Below, piece after piece: positions 5,985-15,772 of a stretch of DNA of 64,000 bases. The notes under the pieces are model-generated. The model did not search any database. It was not told the DNA's origin and saw only the letters and a list, made by a program, of their open reading frames with translations. Within the stretch, counting starts at the first letter, position 1. Every line of letters begins with the position of its first letter. Made by a program: the position numbers and the translations under genes. This DNA is from Infirmifilum sp. (GTDB lineage: Archaea > Thermoproteota > Thermoprotei > Thermofilales > Thermofilaceae): the NCBI GenBank assembly GCA_041287245.1, contig JBEULP010000003.1, positions 96,001 through 160,000 of the forward strand, given 5' to 3'.

Positions 5985-8393
5985 TCAGTCGAGCTTGATA
6001 ATATTTATCTGTCCTATTTTTCCTGGGAGATCCTCTGCCTGGGTTGTTAACACTACCTGTGCGATATCCCTGTTCTTCGCCAGCGTTTCGAGAAACGCCA
6101 GCTTAATCCTATTATCAACGTTAGGGAGAGGTTCGTCGAGTATTATAAAGTCAGCCTTATGCCGCAACTGGGAGTACATGGCAAGTAAAAGTGCAAGCAG
6201 TACTATTGTCTTTTGCCCGTCGCTTAGCAACTCATTGAACCTATATTTTCCAGCTTTAGTCGCGACGTAGATGTCGTAATAGCTAACCGGGGGGATCCCG
6301 CCACTTTTAGGCTTCTCAGTTATTACAAGTTCCACGGCTTCAACAGCCTCAGATTGATAAATACTTCTCAGTATCTCGTTTGCCTGTTTGTTCAGAGCCT
6401 GGATCTTCTCACGGCGCTGTCTCGTCAAAATCGTCCTAGTGGCATATTTAATCTTTCTAAGCTGTTCTGAGAGTTTTTCCAGTTTCGAAACCCTACTTTC
6501 TAACTCCTCTATTTCTCTCTGTATCGACTCTATGTAATTCTTAAGGTAGGTCTGTTCGTGAGCCTTCAGCTCAGTTTCAAGCTGTGACAGCTGTAACTTT
6601 AATTTGGTCTCTTCTTCCTTCAATCGCTGATACTCGGCATATAGAGGCGCGACCTTTTTTCTAGCTTCTTCAAGCTCTTTAATTTTAGCCTGAATAGCAA
6701 TAGTCTCGAGGCTTAAAGTGTACTCACCTAACTTCCTTTTTAATTCGCCCAGTTTATCGTCTAATCGAATTAGGCGGCTTTCTATCTCTTTATACTCACG
6801 CTGTTTCTCCTGGACTAGAAGATCATCCTCCCTAATTTCCTCGTTAAGACTCTCCTTTCTTTCCAGGTACTCCTTATATTTCTCATAGTTTAATTCATGG
6901 TTTACCAGTATAACCTTTAAATTACGAAGATCCTCGATCACATCACGCAAACCTCTAAGCTTTTTATCAAGTTCCTGTAGTTTCCTCTCGTGCTCAATTA
7001 TATTTTTAGTAATCTGGCTTAATTCACCCCGCATGTCTAGAGCGGCCGAGGCTTCCAACTGAGAGCCGCAAACAGGACATTCAACTTTCTCCACACGTGC
7101 AGCCTGCTCCAACAAACTCTGCCTTAACTGTTGAATACACCTGTACTGTTGAAGTCTCCTGGTTATTTCATGTATTTCCTGCTCAAGTGTTTTCACTTCC
7201 TTTTCAAGCTGCTCCTGCGTCCCATACTTGCTCTGAATCTCCAGGATTTTCTCCTCAGCCTCCTCGTATTCCGTAACACTCGGCTCTAGCTCGACAAGGA
7301 TTTTTTCAAGCGCACGGAGATCAGCCTTTTTTTGCTCAAGCTCAGTAATAGATTCTTGGACATTTTCCCATTCCCTGTCATATCTACTCCAGACATCATT
7401 CAATATTTTCTCAAGTTTTGAAAGAGATTCTTCCAGATTCTCGGGGGAGATATTTATTGCCTCCAGCCTCGCTACAAGATCCTGTGGCACGACAAGCCTT
7501 TCTAGAACACTCCTCAGCTCCTGTTTTAACTCTACCATTTCCTCATTCAGAGCATATATGTCAAGCTCAGAGGCGGGATGCTTGATCTTTTCTTTTATTC
7601 TAGCCAGGTAGTTCTTCTCATTTTCAATTTTACTAGATATGTTCTCATAATTCTCTCGCGCTTCTTCAAGATCCTTCATCCTGGAGGATAGTTCTTCGAG
7701 CCTACCACGTATTCTGGCTATTTCACTCTCAAGGGACCTCCTCTTCTCCTCTAGTTGTTTAAGAGATTCGACGGCTGCATTATATTCCCCCTTCAGCCTC
7801 TCCAGCTGGCCATTCAATTCAGCAAGTCTGCCTTCAACTCGCTTTATAGCCAGGGCGTCATGAAAAGCCCTTATAGAGTTGATCCCCAGTAGAATATCCA
7901 TAGCCTTGCTCCGAGCAACCCTGCTCCCATATGCAAGCATATATAATAGAATATAACTAAGCGAGACTGACCGTATAAACTCCTGGAAGTCAAGCCCCAG
8001 CAGTTCTTCGATCATCCCTTCAACCTTTAAAGGATCATTAAACACGTCACCGTGAGGCGTGCGCAGCGCTACGCTTTCACGAATCCTCCCCTCTCTTTTC
8101 TCAAGGCTCCTCTCAATGCTATAAACCCCCTCCTCTGGGACTTCAAACGTAAGGATTACCGTCGCCTTATCACAGCCGACGTTGATAAGATTCTCGCGTG
8201 GGTAAAATTTCATCGACACATTAAAATCTAAACCGTAAAGAGCAAACTGAATAGCAGAGAGAATACTTGACTTTCCAGAGCCCACAGGACCGATGATCAC
8301 GGTGAGCCCATCCGGGAACTCAAAAACTCTGTGATCCCGTAGCCCTCGATAACACTCTACTTCAAGCCTCCGCAGCCTCGCCTTCAACATCAC
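5985..8393 (-). CDS. SMC/Rad50-like ATPase, arcadin-4 (Arcade operon)
   Basis: Walker A GPVGSGKS, long coiled coil, central CPVC zinc hook, LSDGQ signature, ILDEP Walker B; last gene of the crenactin operon. Confidence 0.85.
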   Translation of the reverse strand: MMLKARLRRLEVECYRGLRDHRVFEFPDGLTVIIGPVGSGKSSILSAIQFALYGLDFNVSMKFYPRENLINVGCDKATVILTFEVPEEGVYSIERSLEKREGRIRESVALRTPHGDVFNDPLKVEGMIEELLGLDFQEFIRSVSLSYILLYMLAYGSRVARSKAMDILLGINSIRAFHDALAIKRVEGRLAELNGQLERLKGEYNAAVESLKQLEEKRRSLESEIARIRGRLEELSSRMKDLEEARENYENISSKIENEKNYLARIKEKIKHPASELDIYALNEEMVELKQELRSVLERLVVPQDLVARLEAINISPENLEESLSKLEKILNDVWSRYDREWENVQESITELEQKKADLRALEKILVELEPSVTEYEEAEEKILEIQSKYGTQEQLEKEVKTLEQEIHEITRRLQQYRCIQQLRQSLLEQAARVEKVECPVCGSQLEASAALDMRGELSQITKNIIEHERKLQELDKKLRGLRDVIEDLRNLKVILVNHELNYEKYKEYLERKESLNEEIREDDLLVQEKQREYKEIESRLIRLDDKLGELKRKLGEYTLSLETIAIQAKIKELEEARKKVAPLYAEYQRLKEEETKLKLQLSQLETELKAHEQTYLKNYIESIQREIEELESRVSKLEKLSEQLRKIKYATRTILTRQRREKIQALNKQANEILRSIYQSEAVEAVELVITEKPKSGGIPPVSYYDIYVATKAGKYRFNELLSDGQKTIVLLALLLAMYSQLRHKADFIILDEPLPNVDNRIKLAFLETLAKNRDIAQVVLTTQAEDLPGKIGQINIIKLD

Positions 8394-8580
8394 CCGCCTC
8401 TACAAGCATGTTTAGAAATTTTCTAACACCCTTTGGTCCCTTATGCACAAACTCGTCAAGAAGCCGGAGACTCAAAGCTAGAGCCTCAGGATCCTCACTT
8501 AATGCCTCCCGCAGCTCTTCACGCAACGCCTCCTCCACCCCCCTTCCTATATACCTGGTAGACACCGCCCTACCCACCAC
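8362..8580 (-). CDS. small helical protein, arcadin-3 candidate
   Basis: 72 aa, overlaps both neighbours, position between arcadin-2 and the SMC-like gene. Confidence 0.65.
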   Translation of the reverse strand: MVGRAVSTRYIGRGVEEALREELREALSEDPEALALSLRLLDEFVHKGPKGVRKFLNMLVEAGDVEGEAAEA

Positions 8581-9199
8581 CCTTCCTTCTCCTACCTAAA
8601 ACATTGAGCCAGGGATTACCCTTTATAAAGTCTGGAACGTCGCCTTCTGCGATGCCCTCCTCAGCCTCCACAACCCTCCCACCCGGCTCTTCATCTCGAC
8701 TCTCCACAGTTTCAGAGGCTCCGTATACAACGATAGGCGTAGGAGGCTGGAGCCTCTGTGCCGCCTCCATTGGACGGTTAGGCTGGGGCGCCGTGAGAAC
8801 ACGCTTCCCCGGAGGAATCACCTCCACTATTTCACCTCCACTAGATATTTCAAGAAGCCCTACCTGCTTCTCCAAGAGAATCTCCCTGGTTCGTTTTGAA
8901 ACATATATAAGTTTTTTAGAGGGAACGGCTATATAGACATAATCTGCATTAACGGCTTCGCACTCATGCGCCTCGTGCGTAATTTCCGTGTTTACATCTC
9001 TAATTGGAACTCTCGACCCTATAAGTTTCACGACAAGGTGTGATCCACCAGCGTCGACGGCAAGTATTTCGGTCGACGTTCCATGGGACACCACGGACTC
9101 CACACGCCCCTTCCTGGAATTTGTTATAAACTTTTTAACATAATCAATATACATGTAATCCTCGCGGGTAACCCTTGAAGCACTAAACTCGCTCGCCAT
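8570..9199 (-). CDS. arcadin-2 (crenactin-binding protein)
   Basis: Directly downstream of crenactin; disordered linker then C-terminal amphipathic helix FIKGNPWLNVLGRRR; likely start ATG 9199 (MASEF). Confidence 0.72.
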   Translation of the reverse strand: MASEFSASRVTREDYMYIDYVKKFITNSRKGRVESVVSHGTSTEILAVDAGGSHLVVKLIGSRVPIRDVNTEITHEAHECEAVNADYVYIAVPSKKLIYVSKRTREILLEKQVGLLEISSGGEIVEVIPPGKRVLTAPQPNRPMEAAQRLQPPTPIVVYGASETVESRDEEPGGRVVEAEEGIAEGDVPDFIKGNPWLNVLGRRRKGGG

Positions 9200-9310
9200 A
9201 ACCACTACAAGATGAAGGATAAGAAACCACCTAAAAGGGTTTCGGACATACCCGGAGGCGACGCTGATAACCTTATAGACAACCGTCAAAAACCGTGCCG
9301 GTAGGCATAT

Positions 9311-10591
9311 CTAAAAATGCGTTCCCCTCTTAAACCAACCCTCCCTAGTCCTCCAGTCCCACTCTATATCCTCCGGTAAGGCTATGCTATATACAATCGC
9401 CCCCTTCCAGACAGAATACAGGGGGTCGGCAACCAGGTGAACCCTAGATTCAATACCTAGCTCTGCAAGGCCAAGCCTTATTTTCTCGGCACTATCCACA
9501 GCGACGTCTTCAAGCCCCTTGGGGACTTTCCACGAGAAGTTGCCTCCACTTAAAATTATGTCACCGTAGAGCTTTGGCAAAAGCTCTATAGAGACCCTAC
9601 TCAAAGCCTCTTGAATAGCCTTGACAAGAGGTAAGGTCCCGGGCACAATTAATTCGCCCACCACGGTATCTCGAGGCCTAGGCATGCCCCTCTTGTAATA
9701 GCTCTCAAAAATTTCGTGTTCGGGGTTGAAGATAACCTCTCCTATTAAAAACCTCATCCAACCATTCTTCTCTAAGTTAACCTCGATAGTAGTTCCGGGT
9801 ATTTTAAAAACCGCCGTAAACCTTTCAGGGTTACTCTTAGCCGCCCTTATTGCCGCGTCAAGATTCCTTGGTATTAATCCTACAGCCTCCTTAAACATCC
9901 TGACAAACTTCTCTTCGCGAACACGGTCCCCGAAGCCTATGTCCTTCAGAATTTCAGCAGCTATAGAGTCAGCTTCAGCTCCACCCCTATTTAAGGCTAG
10001 AATCGCGTTCCTAATAGGGTAAGCGGAGATAGGCGTAATCTGTGTATTACCGTGTCCACTCTCAACGACTACGCAGGTAACGGACTTCTCAGCTATAGCT
10101 ACAGCCAAAGGCTGGGGAATAACCGTCACAGCTTTGACGACCCGCTCCTCCTTGTCGATCCTTGCGTGTATATCAAACAGCCTCTCGTACATGTAATCCG
10201 GAGCTATCACACTTAGAGCTGCCGTCACATAGAAACCCTCAAAGTCCTTTGACTGCGGCTTCGAAACAACCAAACCATATCTTGTCAGCTCTTCAATAAT
10301 CCTCCACGACCTCTGGTCATTCTTATCTATGAGGCCGTCACGCATTGGGTAAATCAGGTGCCTCGACAGGTCGTCGATACTACCCAGGTATTTAATAACG
10401 TCGGGACCGACAACGACCTCCTTTTCGATTCCATATATCTTCAGAAGCGTCCTCGACTCGCCGATGAAAAGCCCGCGATTCTCAACCACCATCGGCTTCT
10501 CAGCTAGAGGACCAAACTTAAAGTGACTGGTGCCATAGTCCTCCCCATACGAGTACCTCTGTTTATACGCACCCAGCGACACCTCAACCAC
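9311..10591 (-). CDS. crenactin (archaeal actin)
   Basis: Actin-fold motifs DYGTSHFKFG, PQPLAVA, VESGHGNTQITPI, ILSGG, YSVWKG; 426 aa. Confidence 0.93.
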   Translation of the reverse strand: MVEVSLGAYKQRYSYGEDYGTSHFKFGPLAEKPMVVENRGLFIGESRTLLKIYGIEKEVVVGPDVIKYLGSIDDLSRHLIYPMRDGLIDKNDQRSWRIIEELTRYGLVVSKPQSKDFEGFYVTAALSVIAPDYMYERLFDIHARIDKEERVVKAVTVIPQPLAVAIAEKSVTCVVVESGHGNTQITPISAYPIRNAILALNRGGAEADSIAAEILKDIGFGDRVREEKFVRMFKEAVGLIPRNLDAAIRAAKSNPERFTAVFKIPGTTIEVNLEKNGWMRFLIGEVIFNPEHEIFESYYKRGMPRPRDTVVGELIVPGTLPLVKAIQEALSRVSIELLPKLYGDIILSGGNFSWKVPKGLEDVAVDSAEKIRLGLAELGIESRVHLVADPLYSVWKGAIVYSIALPEDIEWDWRTREGWFKRGTHF

Positions 10592-10644
10592 CCCAACCTA
10601 ACCCTAGCAGAACCCTTAAATAAATTCGCATATCTCAAAACCCC

Positions 10645-11043
10645 GTGAGTGAGGTATTGGAGATAGAGTTTAAAAGATTCGGAACCCCCCTCGCCAAAGG
10701 CGAGATACGAAGAGACTTAGCTCCAATGAACTTCGAGGCCCTAAGGAAGCTTGAAAAGACAGTGACCTCGATTATTCGCCGAGAAGACCTAATACTAATA
10801 AACGTGCCCTTAAAGATGGTGAACGAGGGGAGCGTCTACACAGACTTCAAACCAGGCGACATACTCCTAGCCCCCGCCGCAAGCTCCCTTGCAATCGTCA
10901 CAACTCACTTATCATCCGAGCCGCGGTTCCGCTTCTACAAGGCGGGCGAGATAACAAGTGGACTTGAAGCCCTCTCACAACTTAAGAACAACGAAATCCT
11001 AACAGTAACGATTAAGCCTCAAAAAGGCGATACAGATGTCTGA
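10645..11043 (+). CDS. cyclophilin-like fold protein
   Basis: APMNFEAL...KPGDILLAP pattern of archaeal cyclophilin-like domains. Confidence 0.6.
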   Translation: MSEVLEIEFKRFGTPLAKGEIRRDLAPMNFEALRKLEKTVTSIIRREDLILINVPLKMVNEGSVYTDFKPGDILLAPAASSLAIVTTHLSSEPRFRFYKAGEITSGLEALSQLKNNEILTVTIKPQKGDTDV

Positions 11044-11407
11044 TACGCAAATCGACGCGATAATACCTGTGAAGCTAACATCCCTAAACGACATCGCCAG
11101 GCTAGCCAGCAGCACCAGCGCCTTAGGCCACGTGACTTATATCCTCCACTTCGCCCGGGGCGGTAAGCATTACTATGGGATACTTGTTGTATTCCGAGAC
11201 TACTACAAGTTCTACGGACTGCCAATGTTCTACTACATTGTCAGTGACAAAGAGCTACCCGGAAATTATATTCTCTTCAAAGCAGAAGAGACCGGCGAGA
11301 TAGTAGAGGTAGCAAAGGGAACAAAGCCAGGTTTCATCACACTCCCAATAGTAAACATCGAACCTGACTCTCAACTCCTTAGAAAAATCATAACGCAGCT
11401 AGACTAG
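11036..11407 (+). CDS. conserved crenarchaeal hypothetical protein
   Basis: LNDIARLA...DYYKFYGLPMFYY...LPIVNI; overlaps upstream stop. Confidence 0.65.
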   Translation: MSDTQIDAIIPVKLTSLNDIARLASSTSALGHVTYILHFARGGKHYYGILVVFRDYYKFYGLPMFYYIVSDKELPGNYILFKAEETGEIVEVAKGTKPGFITLPIVNIEPDSQLLRKIITQLD

Positions 11408-11453
11408 CAATAGCTAATAAAACCGCCTTATAAGTTTCTTAGAGTAAAAACTG

Positions 11454-11885
11454 ATGAAGCCAACTTACTCTGTGAGATCGTCTTCTGAAAACCTGATTTT
11501 CACTTATCACCTTTTCAATAATATTTCAAAGGCGCTCTTGACAAGCCTGGAGCTCCTAAAAACAGACTCCTCGTCAACTTCTGACTCAGTAACTCTCAGC
11601 ATACTACTTTTATTCGCACTACGAATAAGCCTTGGTTTGCTACGTAATAACCTAAGAGATTCTAGCAACCTAGGTAGAGAAGAGGTTAACCGAATAGTTT
11701 ACGGTTACATCGCCCGGGCAGCCGATCTAGCCAAACACCTAAAGGATTTTCAGGAGGTCCCGCGGGGTCCCCACAAGCCCACCTTCTCTCAAAGCTTACA
11801 TGTAATCCTTGAAGAAGCTTTAAGGCTTGAGAATGAACTAGAGAGGTTTGATAAACTAATAGACGATCTCCTCGAAAAACCTTAA
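11454..11885 (+). CDS. hypothetical helical protein
   Basis: 143-aa ORF with TTATAA ~25 nt upstream; fills the gap. Confidence 0.55.
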   Translation: MKPTYSVRSSSENLIFTYHLFNNISKALLTSLELLKTDSSSTSDSVTLSILLLFALRISLGLLRNNLRDSSNLGREEVNRIVYGYIARAADLAKHLKDFQEVPRGPHKPTFSQSLHVILEEALRLENELERFDKLIDDLLEKP

Positions 11886-11910
11886 AGAAAACCAGAGTAG
11901 GTATAGCTCC

Positions 11911-12189
11911 TTATTTCCTAGCTAGGACAATCTCGATTGTCGAGATTGTGCGCTTCTTGTCGGCTTCGCCTACCTGCTCGCTGCCAATTTTGATTGTCTC
12001 GACGTCTACCTCGTCCTTGAGGAATCTACTCTTAACGATTTCGGCTACATCGACAGCGCGTGAAATAGCGCGCCCTCGCGCCTTTATAGAGACCCTCTTA
12101 GCACCCTGGTTAAATTGTATCACAGTGGCGAGGACATAGTTCATGACGTTTTTATTCCCTATTAGTACGCTTCCTTCTGTTGTGCTCAT
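11911..12189 (-). CDS. albA: chromatin protein Alba
   Basis: [39 protein letters not shown] 12189. Confidence 0.96.
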
Positions 12190-12398
12190 TTGCTTCACCG
12201 TTCGCAAAACCCTTTACCCAGCTTGATTAATAAAGGTTACGCTTTTCTGAGGTTTTAAGGAAGCCCGAGAAGGCCGGGTCGTAGAACCTAGTCCGCGCCC
12301 GCATAGCCTCCTCTTGCTTTAGGATTCTAGCACCAATCTCCATCCTGTGAAACAGTTAGAAAAAAGAAAAGCATGCTTAGCAAGCCATACTCCTCCAT

Positions 12399-13988
12399 TT
12401 AAAAAGCTGGCTTTAGCTCTAGTCCATAACCGTAACGTCTGACTATACGTTCCAGCTTTCTACGGGGCTTCCCGGTTAGGTAATTGTAGTAGTCAGCCGA
12501 AACCTGAATTATCACGAGGGACGAGCCTGAATCGACGGTCACCTGGAACCCATCATCACCAAGCATTTTGTTCAGAGTCCTCTCGAGCGCCGCCTTCATC
12601 TTGTACTCTTCCACGCTAACCCTACCTCCTGACCTCTTAATTGGGACCACAAAGGTTCTTTCCCCAAACACATAGAGCTCATACTCAGGATCCCCAGACA
12701 TAAAGTCCCTCACCACTACCACAGGCCTAGCCAGGTCCTCCTCCTTCAGGCCGTGGGGTATCTTCACGGTTGTTTCAACGGAGTATACCTTCTCAACCTG
12801 TCCATTTTTAATGTAGATAACTGTATCCACGATCGAGGGTATCATCCCGAGCTCGACCCTACCGATAAACCTCTGTATAGCATCAATCGGGCTTGTAGCG
12901 TGCACTACCCCCACCATCCCAACACCTGCCAGCCGCAGGTCAGCGTAGATCTGAAAGTCGCGCGTGTCCCTCATTTCGTCATAGAAGGTGTAGTCCGGGC
13001 GGGACAATAGAAGGACGTCGTGTATCTCCTCTGAAGTGGCGTGAGTCTTAGAGTACTGCGTTATCTCCACCGGCAAATGCATGTCGCGCGGGGACTCAAT
13101 AGTCTTCACGACTTTCCCCTTTCTATGGTAATACTCTGCAAGCGCCTGTGCAAATGTCGTTTTACCCATCCCAGGCGCGCCGGCGATCAAAATCCCCTCT
13201 GCTTGCTTCTCAAGCCTGTCCACCAGCTTCTTCGGCAAGTTATAGTCTTCAAGCCTAAGCTTGGCAACCGGTCGAACGGCGGTGATCTCAATACCATCTG
13301 AGAATGGAGGCTTGGTTATGACTATACGGTAACTATCCAGCTGGATTATAACGACACCGACCCCCTCATACTCGATAAAGGCTGACTGGCTTTCATTCCT
13401 AACCCTCTCGAAGATCTGGCGAATATAGTCCTCGAGTTCTTCACGTGTCAAAGGCTCCTCGCGAAGCTCGACAAAACTCCACTTCCCCGGGACGCCCTTC
13501 TTAGCATAGGGGCGCGCACCCTCCTTGAGGTGCACAGACATTACGTCGCTATCAAACAGCCTCTCGAGAATAAACTTCTCCTTGCCCCCCACAGGAATCA
13601 ATAAAACCTCAATGCCCATAGCCCTCGCAGCCTTGGCTGAAACGTCATCACATGTTACCAGAACGCCTCCATGCTCGTACGCGACGAGCCGCGCCACCAT
13701 GTCCGGGTTCAGGTCCCGGATGCCACGGGCACCCTGAGGAAGCTCATACATGTATTCGACCTCGACAACCTCAGGCATCGTCTCGACAGCCTCCCTCAAC
13801 AAGGCAAGCTCCTTCAAACCCGAGAGCCCGCTACTGGCGCCCTTCCTTGCAAGCTCTTCAAAATAGTTTACGAGGGCAACATGAAGAATTATACGCCCAG
13901 CTACCTTGCCCTCCAAAAGGGCTGAACGCAGAACCCCGCTGATTATAGCCGATGTATCCGGTATGTACACTCCTTCTTCTAAACTCAT
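12399..13988 (-). CDS. PINA-type PIN-domain/ATPase protein
   Basis: N-terminal PIN (IPDTSAII), Walker A GAPGMGKT, RPDYTFYDEMR, GVVHATSPIDAIQRF. Confidence 0.88.
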   Translation of the reverse strand: MSLEEGVYIPDTSAIISGVLRSALLEGKVAGRIILHVALVNYFEELARKGASSGLSGLKELALLREAVETMPEVVEVEYMYELPQGARGIRDLNPDMVARLVAYEHGGVLVTCDDVSAKAARAMGIEVLLIPVGGKEKFILERLFDSDVMSVHLKEGARPYAKKGVPGKWSFVELREEPLTREELEDYIRQIFERVRNESQSAFIEYEGVGVVIIQLDSYRIVITKPPFSDGIEITAVRPVAKLRLEDYNLPKKLVDRLEKQAEGILIAGAPGMGKTTFAQALAEYYHRKGKVVKTIESPRDMHLPVEITQYSKTHATSEEIHDVLLLSRPDYTFYDEMRDTRDFQIYADLRLAGVGMVGVVHATSPIDAIQRFIGRVELGMIPSIVDTVIYIKNGQVEKVYSVETTVKIPHGLKEEDLARPVVVVRDFMSGDPEYELYVFGERTFVVPIKRSGGRVSVEEYKMKAALERTLNKMLGDDGFQVTVDSGSSLVIIQVSADYYNYLTGKPRRKLERIVRRYGYGLELKPAF

Positions 13989-14078
13989 TACCAGATTCGA
14001 TATCGACTAGGACCTACCATTTTTAAATGTTTCGCACAGCTTGAAAAACTCGGGAGTCTATCGTAGAAGGAGGAAGTA

Positions 14079-14287
14079 GACCCCTAAATTTCAACTGGAA
14101 ATCTCCTAAGTTAAGCTCTGAGTTACAGTTAGTATTAAGTAGTATAACACGGGTTTTATCTCCAGTTGTTCCATAAGAAATGAAGGGGTCTGAGAAGATT
14201 ATACAAGGTTAGGGGATCTTATACGGTTATACTGTCTAATTGTTGTAAGGAGCTTGAGGTTTAAATAACCCCTTGATTTCCACTGGA
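14079..14287. promoter_or_regulatory. candidate replication origin (oriC) with three ORB elements
   Basis: ORB-like TTCCAGTTGAAATTTAGGGGTC (-, 14079-14100), GTTCCATAAGAAATGAAGGGGTC (+, 14168-14190), TCCAGTGGAAATCAAGGGGTT (-, 14267-14287) in a ~470-bp AT-rich intergenic region. Confidence 0.8.
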
Positions 14288-14481
14288 GCCGGTGGAAAAG
14301 AGTGATTAGTCTCTTTATTCACGTTATAACCTAAAATAAATCTCTTTTTTAGAATGCAAATGTAATTTTAGATAGAAATAAAAGACAGAAATAAGTTAGC
14401 GTTTATACAGCTACCAAGTCGTAGTATAAAATAAGAGTTTTTCATAAATACCCCTTGATTGGCTATAAATCTCAGAAGCTT

Positions 14482-14877
14482 ATGGCGCCTAAGATCAAGA
14501 TTGAGGATACCCTGCCTTCAGGCGAGAAAGTGTCTCTCTCAATAGAAGGCGGGGACCTTGATGAGGAAAAAGTCCTGCGGCTTCTTGCTACCCTGAAAAG
14601 CCTAAAAGATTCTAGCAAGACGATGCCCCTAGAACCGCAGGAGGAGGAGACCACTAAGGAGAAAATCTGGCGCGTCATAGTTGAAAACTTTGCTGACGGG
14701 ACCTGGTTCTCGCTAAAAGATGTGTTCAACCTAGCCGTAAAACAGGAGCCTTCTCTGAAAATTACCGCCGTCTCAACTTATGTCACGCGTCTCGTCTCTG
14801 AAGGCCGGCTTGTGAAGCGTGGGACCAAGCCCAACACTCGCTACCGGATTAGAAGCATCGTTGTAGAGAGAGTTTAA
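14482..14877 (+). CDS. origin-adjacent winged-helix DNA-binding protein
   Basis: C-terminal wHTH (WFSLKDV...TAVSTYVTRLVSEGRLVKRG...RYRI); ATG 14482 preferred over TTG 14455. Confidence 0.72.
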   Translation: MAPKIKIEDTLPSGEKVSLSIEGGDLDEEKVLRLLATLKSLKDSSKTMPLEPQEEETTKEKIWRVIVENFADGTWFSLKDVFNLAVKQEPSLKITAVSTYVTRLVSEGRLVKRGTKPNTRYRIRSIVVERV

Positions 14878-14902: not shown

Positions 14903-15484
14903 CTAAGGCCGCTTTGTATATTCGGGTATGAGGAGCTTTGCTATATCACTTTTAGTTATTATCCCAACAATCCTCATGCTTTGTTCGACGAGTACGGCTG
15001 GAACGCCTTTTGAGAGCATGCGTGCAATTACCCTGACCTTAGTGTTGCAGGAGACGATGGGAAGCGGGTCCGACATGATGTCGGCAACTGTTAGCTGCGA
15101 GGCGCGCTCGTTTTCACGCATAAAAGCGGCAAGTATATCATCATCGAAGACTGTCCCAACATTCTCGTGTGAATCGACGCTAAGCACTGGCAACTGGCTA
15201 AACCCCTTCTCCCACATAATTCTCGCAGCGTCGACTAGTTTAGTCCCAGTTGTCACATAGATTACAGGGGAGGACATGACATCACAGGAGCACAGCTCAT
15301 CCTCCAGGATGTTCTTCAAAGCATCGTATATTCGGATGAGAGTAGAGACCCGTGGGTTCACTTTTCCAGCCTCTATCCTAGCTATAAGGCTTTGGCTAAC
15401 CCCTGCCCGTCGAGCCACCTCGCTCTGTGTCAGGCCAGCCTTAACCCGTAGTATTCTCAGCTCTTCAGGCGATGGTATTGGCAT
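14903..15484 (-). CDS. XRE-HTH/CBS-domain transcriptional regulator
   Basis: LTQSEVARRAGVSQSLIARIE HTH plus CBS pair (FSQLPV, GIITKSDI); likely start MPIP. Confidence 0.9.
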   Translation of the reverse strand: MPIPSPEELRILRVKAGLTQSEVARRAGVSQSLIARIEAGKVNPRVSTLIRIYDALKNILEDELCSCDVMSSPVIYVTTGTKLVDAARIMWEKGFSQLPVLSVDSHENVGTVFDDDILAAFMRENERASQLTVADIMSDPLPIVSCNTKVRVIARMLSKGVPAVLVEQSMRIVGIITKSDIAKLLIPEYTKRP

Positions 15485-15665
15485 ACATAGAAAAAAGTCG
15501 TGATTACTGATATGCATTACGCTCATTTAAAATCTTGAATTCCCAAGTAAACAGGTTCCGCGCCTGAGTACACTTTTCCCCAACTCCTAAAAAATAATGG
15601 TATCCTTGAAACGATGGCATTCCTCTAAAGTAAAGTTTAAGAATAATCATTCTAGAAAAACCTTA

Positions 15666-15772
15666 GGGCCGGTAGCTCAGCCAGGTAGAGCACCCGGCTC
15701 ATAACCGGGAGCGAACCGCGCATGGCGCGCGGGCGTCGGGATGGGTCCCGGGTTCAAGTCCCGGCCGGCCCA
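15666..15772 (+). tRNA. tRNA(CAU), likely Ile2, with ~33-nt intron at the variable loop (~15710-15744)
   Basis: GGGCCGG acceptor, CCCGG-CTCATAA-CCGGG arm, GTTCAAGTC; Ile versus elongator Met inferred from acceptor stem. Confidence 0.85.

Follow-up and report, generated by a model that had tools for sequence, protein, structure and literature searches.

The oriC1 origin of Sulfolobus contains, besides its origin recognition boxes (ORBs), an 11-bp element called ucm (ATTATACAAAC), reported to be essential for oriC1 firing and to be bound by UBP (SiRe_1573/Saci_0847, PDB 9EFD), a small protein with a beta-hairpin saddle fold; the 2025 study that described UBP closes by asking whether more divergent archaea have analogous origin proteins (PMC12141716). 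In oriC3 of Sulfolobales and Desulfurococcales a winged-helix gene adjoins the origin, and its product, WhiP, binds repeats close to that gene. Some ORB origins are already known to lack an adjoining initiator gene, as in Hyperthermus butylicus and in the type III pattern of the Ori-Finder-Arch preprint, which combines ORB(-), a duplex-unwinding element (DUE) and ORB(+), at least three ORBs and no neighbouring cdc6. Here we analysed a 64-kb window (positions 96001-160000 of C49, a 196-kb contig of the Infirmifilum genome G000; all coordinates below are those of the window unless a contig is named), and we describe an intergenic gap that is very probably the chromosome replication origin of this hot-spring Thermofilaceae archaeon, together with the gene on its right (14482..14877, plus strand), which encodes a 131-aa winged helix-turn-helix (wHTH) protein of an unnamed family.

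The gap measures 493 bp to the ATG of the wHTH gene, or 466 bp to an upstream TTG, and is 65% AT, in agreement with the AT-rich gap of about 470 bp given in a preliminary description of this DNA. As that description had also noticed, it contains three ORB-like boxes with G-strings: ORB1 (14080..14100, minus strand), ORB2 (14169..14189, plus strand) and ORB3 (14268..14288, minus strand). When the whole 1.81-Mb genome (119 contigs) was searched with up to 2 mismatches to the ORB consensus, these were the three best matches. A position weight matrix (PWM) trained on 55 Thermofilaceae boxes, the three window boxes included, gave them scores of 28.5, 25.6 and 33.6, respectively, ORB3 being the genome's best box, and the next site, an isolated one, reached 20.2. 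ORB1, a predicted Orc1-1 recognition box, lies at -396 to -435 from the wHTH ATG in 18 of 20 Thermofilaceae loci. The cumulative GC-skew minimum of the contig, a check that the preliminary description had proposed, falls at position 14051, 29 bp from ORB1, and on this one contig the plus-strand share of long open reading frames (ORFs) passes from 0.36-0.38 to 0.58-0.59 across the site.

The genome has three Cdc6_C matches, all of them outside the window, which bears out the earlier remark that no Orc1/Cdc6 ORF occurs in the 64 kb. An Orc1-1-type gene with AAA+, lid and winged-helix domains is found on the same contig, about 57 kb off (C49:51706-52893), and in six near-complete relatives orc1-1 is located about 28-101 kb from the origin. 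Around the three cdc6 winged-helix matches, no ORB-like site closer than about 1.5 kb exceeded a score of 6.5. The locus thus shows what characterizes the oriC1 type, namely at least two full ORBs (dyad and G-string), an inverted ORB(-)/AT-rich spacer/ORB(+) arrangement, an Orc1-1 orthologue and a replichore switch; the initiator gene that usually, although not obligatorily, adjoins such origins is absent. Because of the genome-wide uniqueness of the ORBs, the skew minimum, the strand-bias flip and the conservation of the site, we are highly confident that the candidate of the preliminary description is an origin, Orc1 binding and firing being predicted from the sequence. DoriC already holds a predicted origin entry for Thermofilum pendens (bioRxiv 10.1101/2021.04.30.439615), and the origin itself and the absence of an adjacent cdc6 are ordinary. 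Compared with oriC1 of Sulfolobus/Saccharolobus, the locus shares three full ORBs with G-strings, an outward inverted pair at similar spacing, the ucm core word and an Orc1-1 orthologue (50% identical); it differs by the distance of orc1-1, by the lack of any UBP found in the genome, and by its third ORB, which stands on the other side and points away from the small wHTH gene.

Which two boxes flank the unwinding element was reconsidered. The preliminary description had chosen ORB2(+) and ORB3(-), which do face each other, with convergent G-strings, across 76 bp when taken as 22-mers (78 bp as 21-mers). In Sulfolobaceae oriC1, located by a published primer, the order is ORB(-), AT-rich spacer, ORB(+), ORB(+), cdc6, so that the G-strings of the unwinding pair point outward. 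The loci of our family f29 (Sulfolobaceae, since the published S. islandicus primers match; f1 is Thermofilaceae) have the same geometry, with 87-139 bp from start to start where both boxes were seen, and the ORB1/ORB2 distance here is 89 bp. ORB(-)/DUE/ORB(+) is also given as the minimal pattern in the Ori-Finder-Arch preprint. In addition, the ORB2-ORB3 distance grows to 0.4-2.2 kb in families f4, f10, f12, f19, f43, f44, f47 and f48, with ORFs inside the interval in at least f4, f10, f12 and f44; ORB1 and ORB2 mostly stay together, and ORB3 stays about 200 bp 5' of the wHTH gene even in loci with such inserted genes. The Sulfolobus-type geometry and the whole genes between ORB2 and ORB3 in relatives disfavour that pair, and by analogy the likely unwinding pair is ORB1(-)/ORB2(+), whose G-strings point outward to the left and to the right. 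Its 68-bp spacer (14101..14168, 65% AT) would be the duplex-unwinding and MCM-loading element; this spacer is 67-84 bp long across 19 Thermofilaceae loci, among which we found no conserved sequence and no conserved word in it. The pairing is likely rather than certain, because the ORB2-ORB3 spacer is also conserved in length (75-79 bp in 17 of 19 Thermofilaceae) and is equally AT-rich in this genome. The largest ORB2-ORB3 interval, 2.2 kb, holds a 513-aa gene (L101, genome G171, f44).

We then looked at the distribution of the wHTH gene. A profile search returned 105 family representatives at 50% clustering, and an 82-sequence profile matched 277 of 401 Thermoproteota genomes, 259 strongly (E<=2.1e-17) and 18 weakly (E 1e-6 to 8e-4), a strong member being nearly always single-copy. 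The family was found in 37 of 41 Thermofilales and 20 of 23 Thermofilaceae genomes and, among the best 80 of 562 confirmed stretches from named records, also in Hel-, Heimdall- and Baldrarchaeota and in many Methanomicrobia. Some family labels are themselves inferred: f22 and its kin as Bathyarchaeia-type (named records have the same cassette), f14/f55/f57 as ammonia-oxidiser-type and f7/f8 as Thermoproteales, the last in line with the reported loss of Orc1-1 in that group (PMC3914693). The 121 loci collected are no random sample, as they were chosen by family or as the matches with the highest scores; they include one gene twice and two loci of genome G338 (L109 and L110, similar cdc6-origin-wHTH cassettes on different contigs, probably from a mixed bin).

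In Thermofilaceae the full ORB triad stands directly upstream of the gene in 18 of 20 loci; in one more, at the end of a contig, two boxes are present, and in the twentieth (G016) inserted genes separate the wHTH gene from the triad, at a distance of 3.1 kb; judged by their translations, these are a coiled-coil repeat gene and a toxin-antitoxin-like pair of PIN type (L031:2200-5934). Over all families, 116 loci had at least 330 bp upstream, and in 102 of these, from 30 of 34 families, an ORB was located no more than 1.3 kb away; 59 of the 102 also have cdc6 in the locus, on the opposite side, and the other 43 do not. The synteny of wHTH homologues with ORBs, proposed earlier as a check, is thus observed. 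A minus-strand ORB occurs 142-244 bp before the gene start in 93 loci. The widespread cassette reads cdc6, ORB(-), ORB(+), ORB(-), wHTH gene, with the two genes directed outward: in Bathyarchaeia-type and ammonia-oxidiser-type genomes the wHTH gene flanks the origin opposite cdc6. Among the best 80 of 562 named stretches, 19 of 20 Bathyarchaeia records have cdc6 and ORBs (the twentieth ends early), one Baldrarchaeota record has the cassette, and an ORB lies within 1 kb in 3 of 7 Asgard and 16 of 52 other records. In a quick IQ-TREE protein tree (139 columns; 77 of 130 sequences, each family represented by no more than three), the families with origin and gene but no adjacent cdc6 form one clade (98% SH-aLRT), so cdc6 probably left once. 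The gene lies off the origin in f21, f26 and f36 (one clade with f40, 99%; about 20 kb in G038 and G112) and in G400, and 2.6 kb from it in G319. Judged from these comparisons, the pairing of origin and wHTH gene, rather than cdc6, that the preliminary description had pointed out is ancient. This makes the gene a practical oriC marker in Thermoproteota genomes from which cdc6 has moved away; the accessible passages on ORB origins that lack an adjoining initiator gene name no constant partner gene or ucm-like array for them.

Two further arrangements were seen. In f14, f55 and f57 (L062-L073, L074, L172, L173) there are two or three strong ORBs on the same strand, at most a weak opposite one, and dense GTTAAC repeats. 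Methanosarcinia/Methanocellales records (L192, L205, L213, L221, L222, L231, L237, L243, L249, L255, L257, L260, L211, L226) contain a single strong ORB on the minus strand, 270-770 bp before the wHTH gene, and no cdc6 within 3 kb; these loci are possibly cdc6-less origins or Orc1 operators.

The gap contains a second repeated word. TTATACA is the core of Sulfolobus ucm, and TTATAC occurs six times in the gap compared with 0.47 times in shuffled sequence (0 of 20,000 shuffles as high), which is the densest cluster of the genome. An ucm-like word (14198..14208, plus strand), 9/11 identical to Sulfolobus ucm, starts 9 bp after ORB2; two TTATAC words follow on the same strand before ORB3 (starts at 14219 and 14227, together 14219..14232); another (14142..14147, minus strand) is inside the ORB1-ORB2 spacer at a position that is not conserved; and two lie in the leader of the wHTH gene, at 14403 (plus strand) and 14424 (minus strand). 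In Sulfolobus the word is found once, in the middle of the DUE, whereas most of the six copies here are outside the inverted pair. In Thermofilaceae, 17 of 20 loci have a TT(A/C)TAC-type word that starts 8-10 bp beyond ORB2. Family by family, words were counted with ORBs masked, against dinucleotide shuffles and pooled over relatives, so that the counts are not independent: we observed TTATAC 53 times versus 5.8 in f1, TTCACA 101 versus 8.5 in f22, and TTAACA 87 versus 3.6 in f14, and the repeats reached z>2 in 64 of 104 family-positive origins. In six cases of a relocated wHTH gene the words remain at the origin (z 1.3-8.1), and few of them precede the gene itself. Methanomicrobia-type loci that lack an ORB show enrichment of the word in the 350 bp before the gene in 19 of 36 cases, against 4 of 35 on the downstream side. 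A different element, GTTAAC-N-GGGGA-GTTAAC, abuts the ORB G-string in f23/f32 origins that have no wHTH family member (L265, L267, L268, L271); it is not ucm.

The 131-aa protein has no match in Pfam or NCBIfam. Homologues named Infirmifilum are 68-76% identical and those named Thermofilum about 61-63%, which assigns the window to Thermofilaceae. AlphaFold2 (82-sequence alignment; mean predicted local distance difference test, pLDDT, of 85.8, and 96-97 over residues 61-120) predicts an N-terminal beta-beta-alpha domain (residues 4-46, with two strands and one helix), then a loose linker, and at the C-terminus a Fur/BlaI-like winged helix (55-128). The best structural matches were Fur (Z 11.6, root-mean-square deviation 2.0 over 69) and MecI (Z 9.2, 4.1 over 71); a wide structure search, which barely covered the N-terminal domain, returned generic winged helices only, and Foldseek gave no match at E<=0.001. 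An Atlas look-up with residues 1-50 yielded no usable match, so that the N-terminal fold has no name. A sequence search of the PDB found nothing below E 0.03, MecI being a weak match at E 0.054, and PF03965 (BlaI/MecI/CopY) matched 22 of 82 family members weakly (best E 1.5e-5) and not the window protein. WhiP and UBP were both considered and rejected as identities. WhiP gave 3.6% with hhalign and E 3.2 with BLASTP, and it is a protein of about 246 aa that has winged helices in tandem and initiates at an origin lacking ORBs and independent of Orc1, whereas the present protein has one winged helix and stands beside three full ORBs; one query found no WhiP in this genome. UBP is unrelated in sequence (hhalign probability 0.4%) and has its saddle where a winged helix is predicted here. 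The protein thus belongs to an unnamed family that is neither WhiP nor UBP, and the literature searched, subscription papers excepted, contained no description of this family or of its link to origins.

The recognition helix offers a candidate reader of the words. In the weak MecI match, T99 and R103 align with MecI T47 and R51; the Thr is kept in 118 and the Arg in 127 of 130 sequences, and the first helix Thr (MecI T44) is A96 in the window protein and T in 84 of 130. In Bacillus licheniformis BlaI, T43, T46 and R50 are reported to contact T, G and T of the TACA/TGTA motif (PMC1935004), and TTATACA, TTCACA and TTAACA all share ACA/TGT. By this analogy, which is suggestive only, the Thr/Arg helix face might read the ACA/TGT core. 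By eye, the helix reads IT[TAS]VS in Thermofilales and LSTVS elsewhere; we do not claim a recognition code, because f27 uses TTAAC without an obvious helix change. The family thus resembles BlaI/MecI/CopY in its winged-helix fold, its Thr/Arg helix pattern and the core of its putative site. It differs by its reversed order, the winged helix being C-terminal, by the lack of the BlaI dimerisation domain, and by its scattered single 6-7-mer words instead of a palindromic TACANNTGTA operator (the palindrome was not searched as such); it is moreover archaeal, single-copy and origin-linked.

As UBP reads ucm in Sulfolobus, we compared the occurrence of the two proteins. UBP, located by its published residues and confirmed as PDB 9EFD, matched in 75 of 401 genomes, one of them by chance, and none of the 74 others has a strong wHTH member (nine have weak matches). 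A 28-sequence UBP profile found none in 41 Thermofilales. Two remote UBP hits were set aside as chance, in G300 (E 0.003, internal stop; one class hit) and in G048 (E 5e-4, 46 residues). Sulfolobales-class origins without the wHTH family still carry words (z>2 in 2/17 f29, 2/4 f23, 2/2 f16 and 1/2 f32), and the genomes that have words and lack the family are UBP genomes. Conversely G442, which is of the class of UBP genomes, lacks UBP and combines its ORBs with an adjoining wHTH gene and GTTAAC repeats. The 36 f7/f8 genomes have neither Orc1-1 nor UBP nor a strong wHTH member, and a strong member was not found where Orc1-1 is missing, unlike the Orc1 independence of the WhiP type. In five genomes with Orc1-1 but neither protein, the origins showed repeats in 0/5 (z -1.2 to 1.5). 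The ucm-like repeats and the mutual exclusion with UBP support the suggestion of the preliminary description that the wHTH protein may be an origin-binding accessory factor, its binding being a prediction. Both would be small proteins using the same word at Orc1-1 origins, but UBP is not described as origin-encoded in the accessible part of PMC12141716, and its DNA binding and MCM contact (N-terminal domains) are shown there, whereas they are proposed here.

We give even chances to the reading that this is an Orc1-1 origin whose ucm-like words are bound by the wHTH protein as accessory factor and autoregulator. Orc1-1 would bind ORB1-3, as expected from established ORB biology, and MCM would be loaded on the spacer between ORB1(-) and ORB2(+), if the Sulfolobus geometry holds. 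The wHTH protein, possibly oligomerising through its N-terminal beta-beta-alpha domain, might contact the words through Thr99/Arg103 and, seated beside ORB2 and along the ORB3 leader, help to organise or release the Orc1-MCM complex, as the analogy to UBP suggests. It would probably also control its own promoter together with Orc1 at ORB3. The preliminary description had placed Orc1 regulation at a half-site just before the gene. That half-site is present: ACCCCTTGATT has exactly two copies in the genome, one inside ORB3 and one at 14450 (14450..14460, minus strand). The second copy occurs in only 1 of 19 Thermofilaceae, this genome (score 17.2; next best 6.2), so it is probably a chance look-alike and gives no evidence for Orc1 regulation; Orc1 control may instead act through ORB3 itself, given the constant position of that box in the 93 loci. 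The unrelated UBP would later have taken over the role in Sulfolobales and Desulfurococcales. A broader version, which we regard as doubtful and offer tentatively, makes the family the ancestral archaeal ucm reader, an origin-encoded Orc1-1 co-factor predating the TACK/Asgard/Methanomicrobia split and needed for firing, whose word drifted by lineage (TTCACA, TTAACA, TTATACA) until UBP displaced it in Sulfolobales/Desulfurococcales, Sulfolobus ucm being the last remnant of the array. Under that version, in ammonia-oxidiser origins, where only same-strand strong ORBs face the gene leader, the wHTH protein could supply the second side of helicase loading.

Several observations weigh against a role of the wHTH protein at the origin. 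In 40 of the 104 family-positive origins, among them 11 of 19 Thermofilaceae when the pooled pattern is used, the repeats do not reach z>2. Sulfolobus ucm is single and central in the DUE whereas the conserved words here lie outside the ORB1/ORB2 pair, so the wHTH protein may do another job than UBP. In f21, f26, f36 and G400 the gene is no longer at the origin, and Thr and Arg at these helix positions are common in winged-helix proteins, the MecI match being weak in any case. In at least 11 Orc1-1 genomes (f9, f11, f13, f15, plus f35 and f59 rows) these searches found neither protein, so an ORB origin can do without both readers. The phyletic patterns also rest on few independent events: the UBP genomes and the f7/f8 loss each represent a single lineage, and the cdc6-less families are one clade, each gain or loss counting for about one event. 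Finally, simple autoregulation would account just as well for the words enriched before the gene in loci that have no ORB. This last point leads to a reading that we consider possible though unlikely, in which the origin is real but the protein acts as a transcription factor or nucleoid protein, controlled by Orc1 and by itself, without a direct role in firing, ORB3 and the words serving promoter control coupled to the cell cycle. The fold is that of Fur/BlaI regulators, ORB3 keeps its distance to the gene start even when genes separate it from ORB1/ORB2, and the single ORBs of Methanosarcinia records and the 19/36 enrichment agree with such control. Yet after relocation of the gene the words stay at the origin, the best-conserved word adjoins ORB2, about 280 bp from the gene, the word is the core of an element needed for Sulfolobus firing in the published account (PMC12141716), and mutual exclusion with UBP is not expected of an ordinary regulator.

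It is improbable, in our view, that the gene is an old origin neighbour kept by synteny or expression timing while another protein reads the words. The linkage is not unique to the wHTH gene, as other HTH genes and an HTH-CBS gene also recur beside these origins, ucm-type words occur in genomes without the family, and the evolutionary events are few; but those genomes have UBP, f15 and f35 origins kept the neighbouring HTH genes and not the wHTH gene and show no repeats, and the two other HTH genes were not found in G000 (six single queries) although its words are present. Distinctly improbable is binding of the words for positioning or segregation of the origin, by bridging or tethering as centromere-binding proteins do, rather than for initiation: the many repeats of variable spacing, the crenactin and SMC-like cluster 3-8 kb away in the window and a small domain predicted to be flexibly linked to a winged helix would suit bridging of multiple short sites, whereas no ParA-type partner was seen in the cassette, the crenactin neighbourhood lies outside it, and the word matches the element reported as needed for firing. 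That the boxes are Orc1 operators only, or a dormant origin, with replication starting elsewhere, we hold to be very improbable. Ori-Finder is reported to have predicted four origin candidates in Thermofilum adornatum, the available literature that was searched contained no experimental mapping for the Thermofilaceae lineage, and other origins could be missing from an assembly of 119 contigs; against this stand the skew minimum within 30 bp of ORB1 with the strand-bias flip, the canonical ORB(-)/spacer/ORB(+), the same cassette beside cdc6 in relatives, and the absence of ORB-like sites near the three cdc6 matches. For the accessory-factor reading, the locus offers a candidate protein, a predicted site and candidate residues, and some members of the lineages concerned are in culture (Thermofilum, ammonia oxidisers, Methanosarcinales). 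Archaeal origins would then seem to be two-protein devices that predate Sulfolobales, a point of relevance to the history of initiation from Asgard archaea to eukaryotes.

The remaining features of the gap are minor. The leader (14289..14481, plus strand, 193 bp) is the AT-richest portion, at 70%, with a putative TATA box near 14444-14450. In Thermofilaceae a G-run and TTTAAATA are conserved immediately 5' of ORB3 (14256-14267), as are short leader blocks about 52 (TCTCTTT), 70 (TG(C/G)AAA) and 95 (AAAGAG) bp after it; these are possibly sites of a further protein or promoter elements. No Rfam family was found within the gap, and a sigma-70 promoter scan, with a model unsuited to archaea, stayed at chance level there.

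On the left, the origin is bordered by a PINA/PRK13764-type ATPase gene (12399..13988, minus strand); this neighbour varies among relatives, so it is no constant cassette member. On the right, a convergent gene for an HTH-CBS protein (14903..15526, minus strand) also adjoins the wHTH gene in several distant families (f4, f10, f12, f18, f20, f24, f25), and in f62 (L261), where UBP is present and the wHTH gene is not, it stands directly at the ORBs. A small HTH gene (about 100-120 aa) and a coiled-coil plus HTH gene also occur beside origins, including some without the wHTH gene (L336, L337, L346, L079, L100). About 2-8 kb from the origin, a cluster within 5985-12207 contains crenactin (9311-10591, above the NCBIfam cut-off), a Rad50/arcadin-4-like SMC protein (5985-8393), small unannotated ORFs and Alba (11911-12207). 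Further right, Rfam matches a tRNA gene at 15666-15772 with 60 bits; not detected by ARAGORN, it probably bears an intron, because it is 107 nt long.

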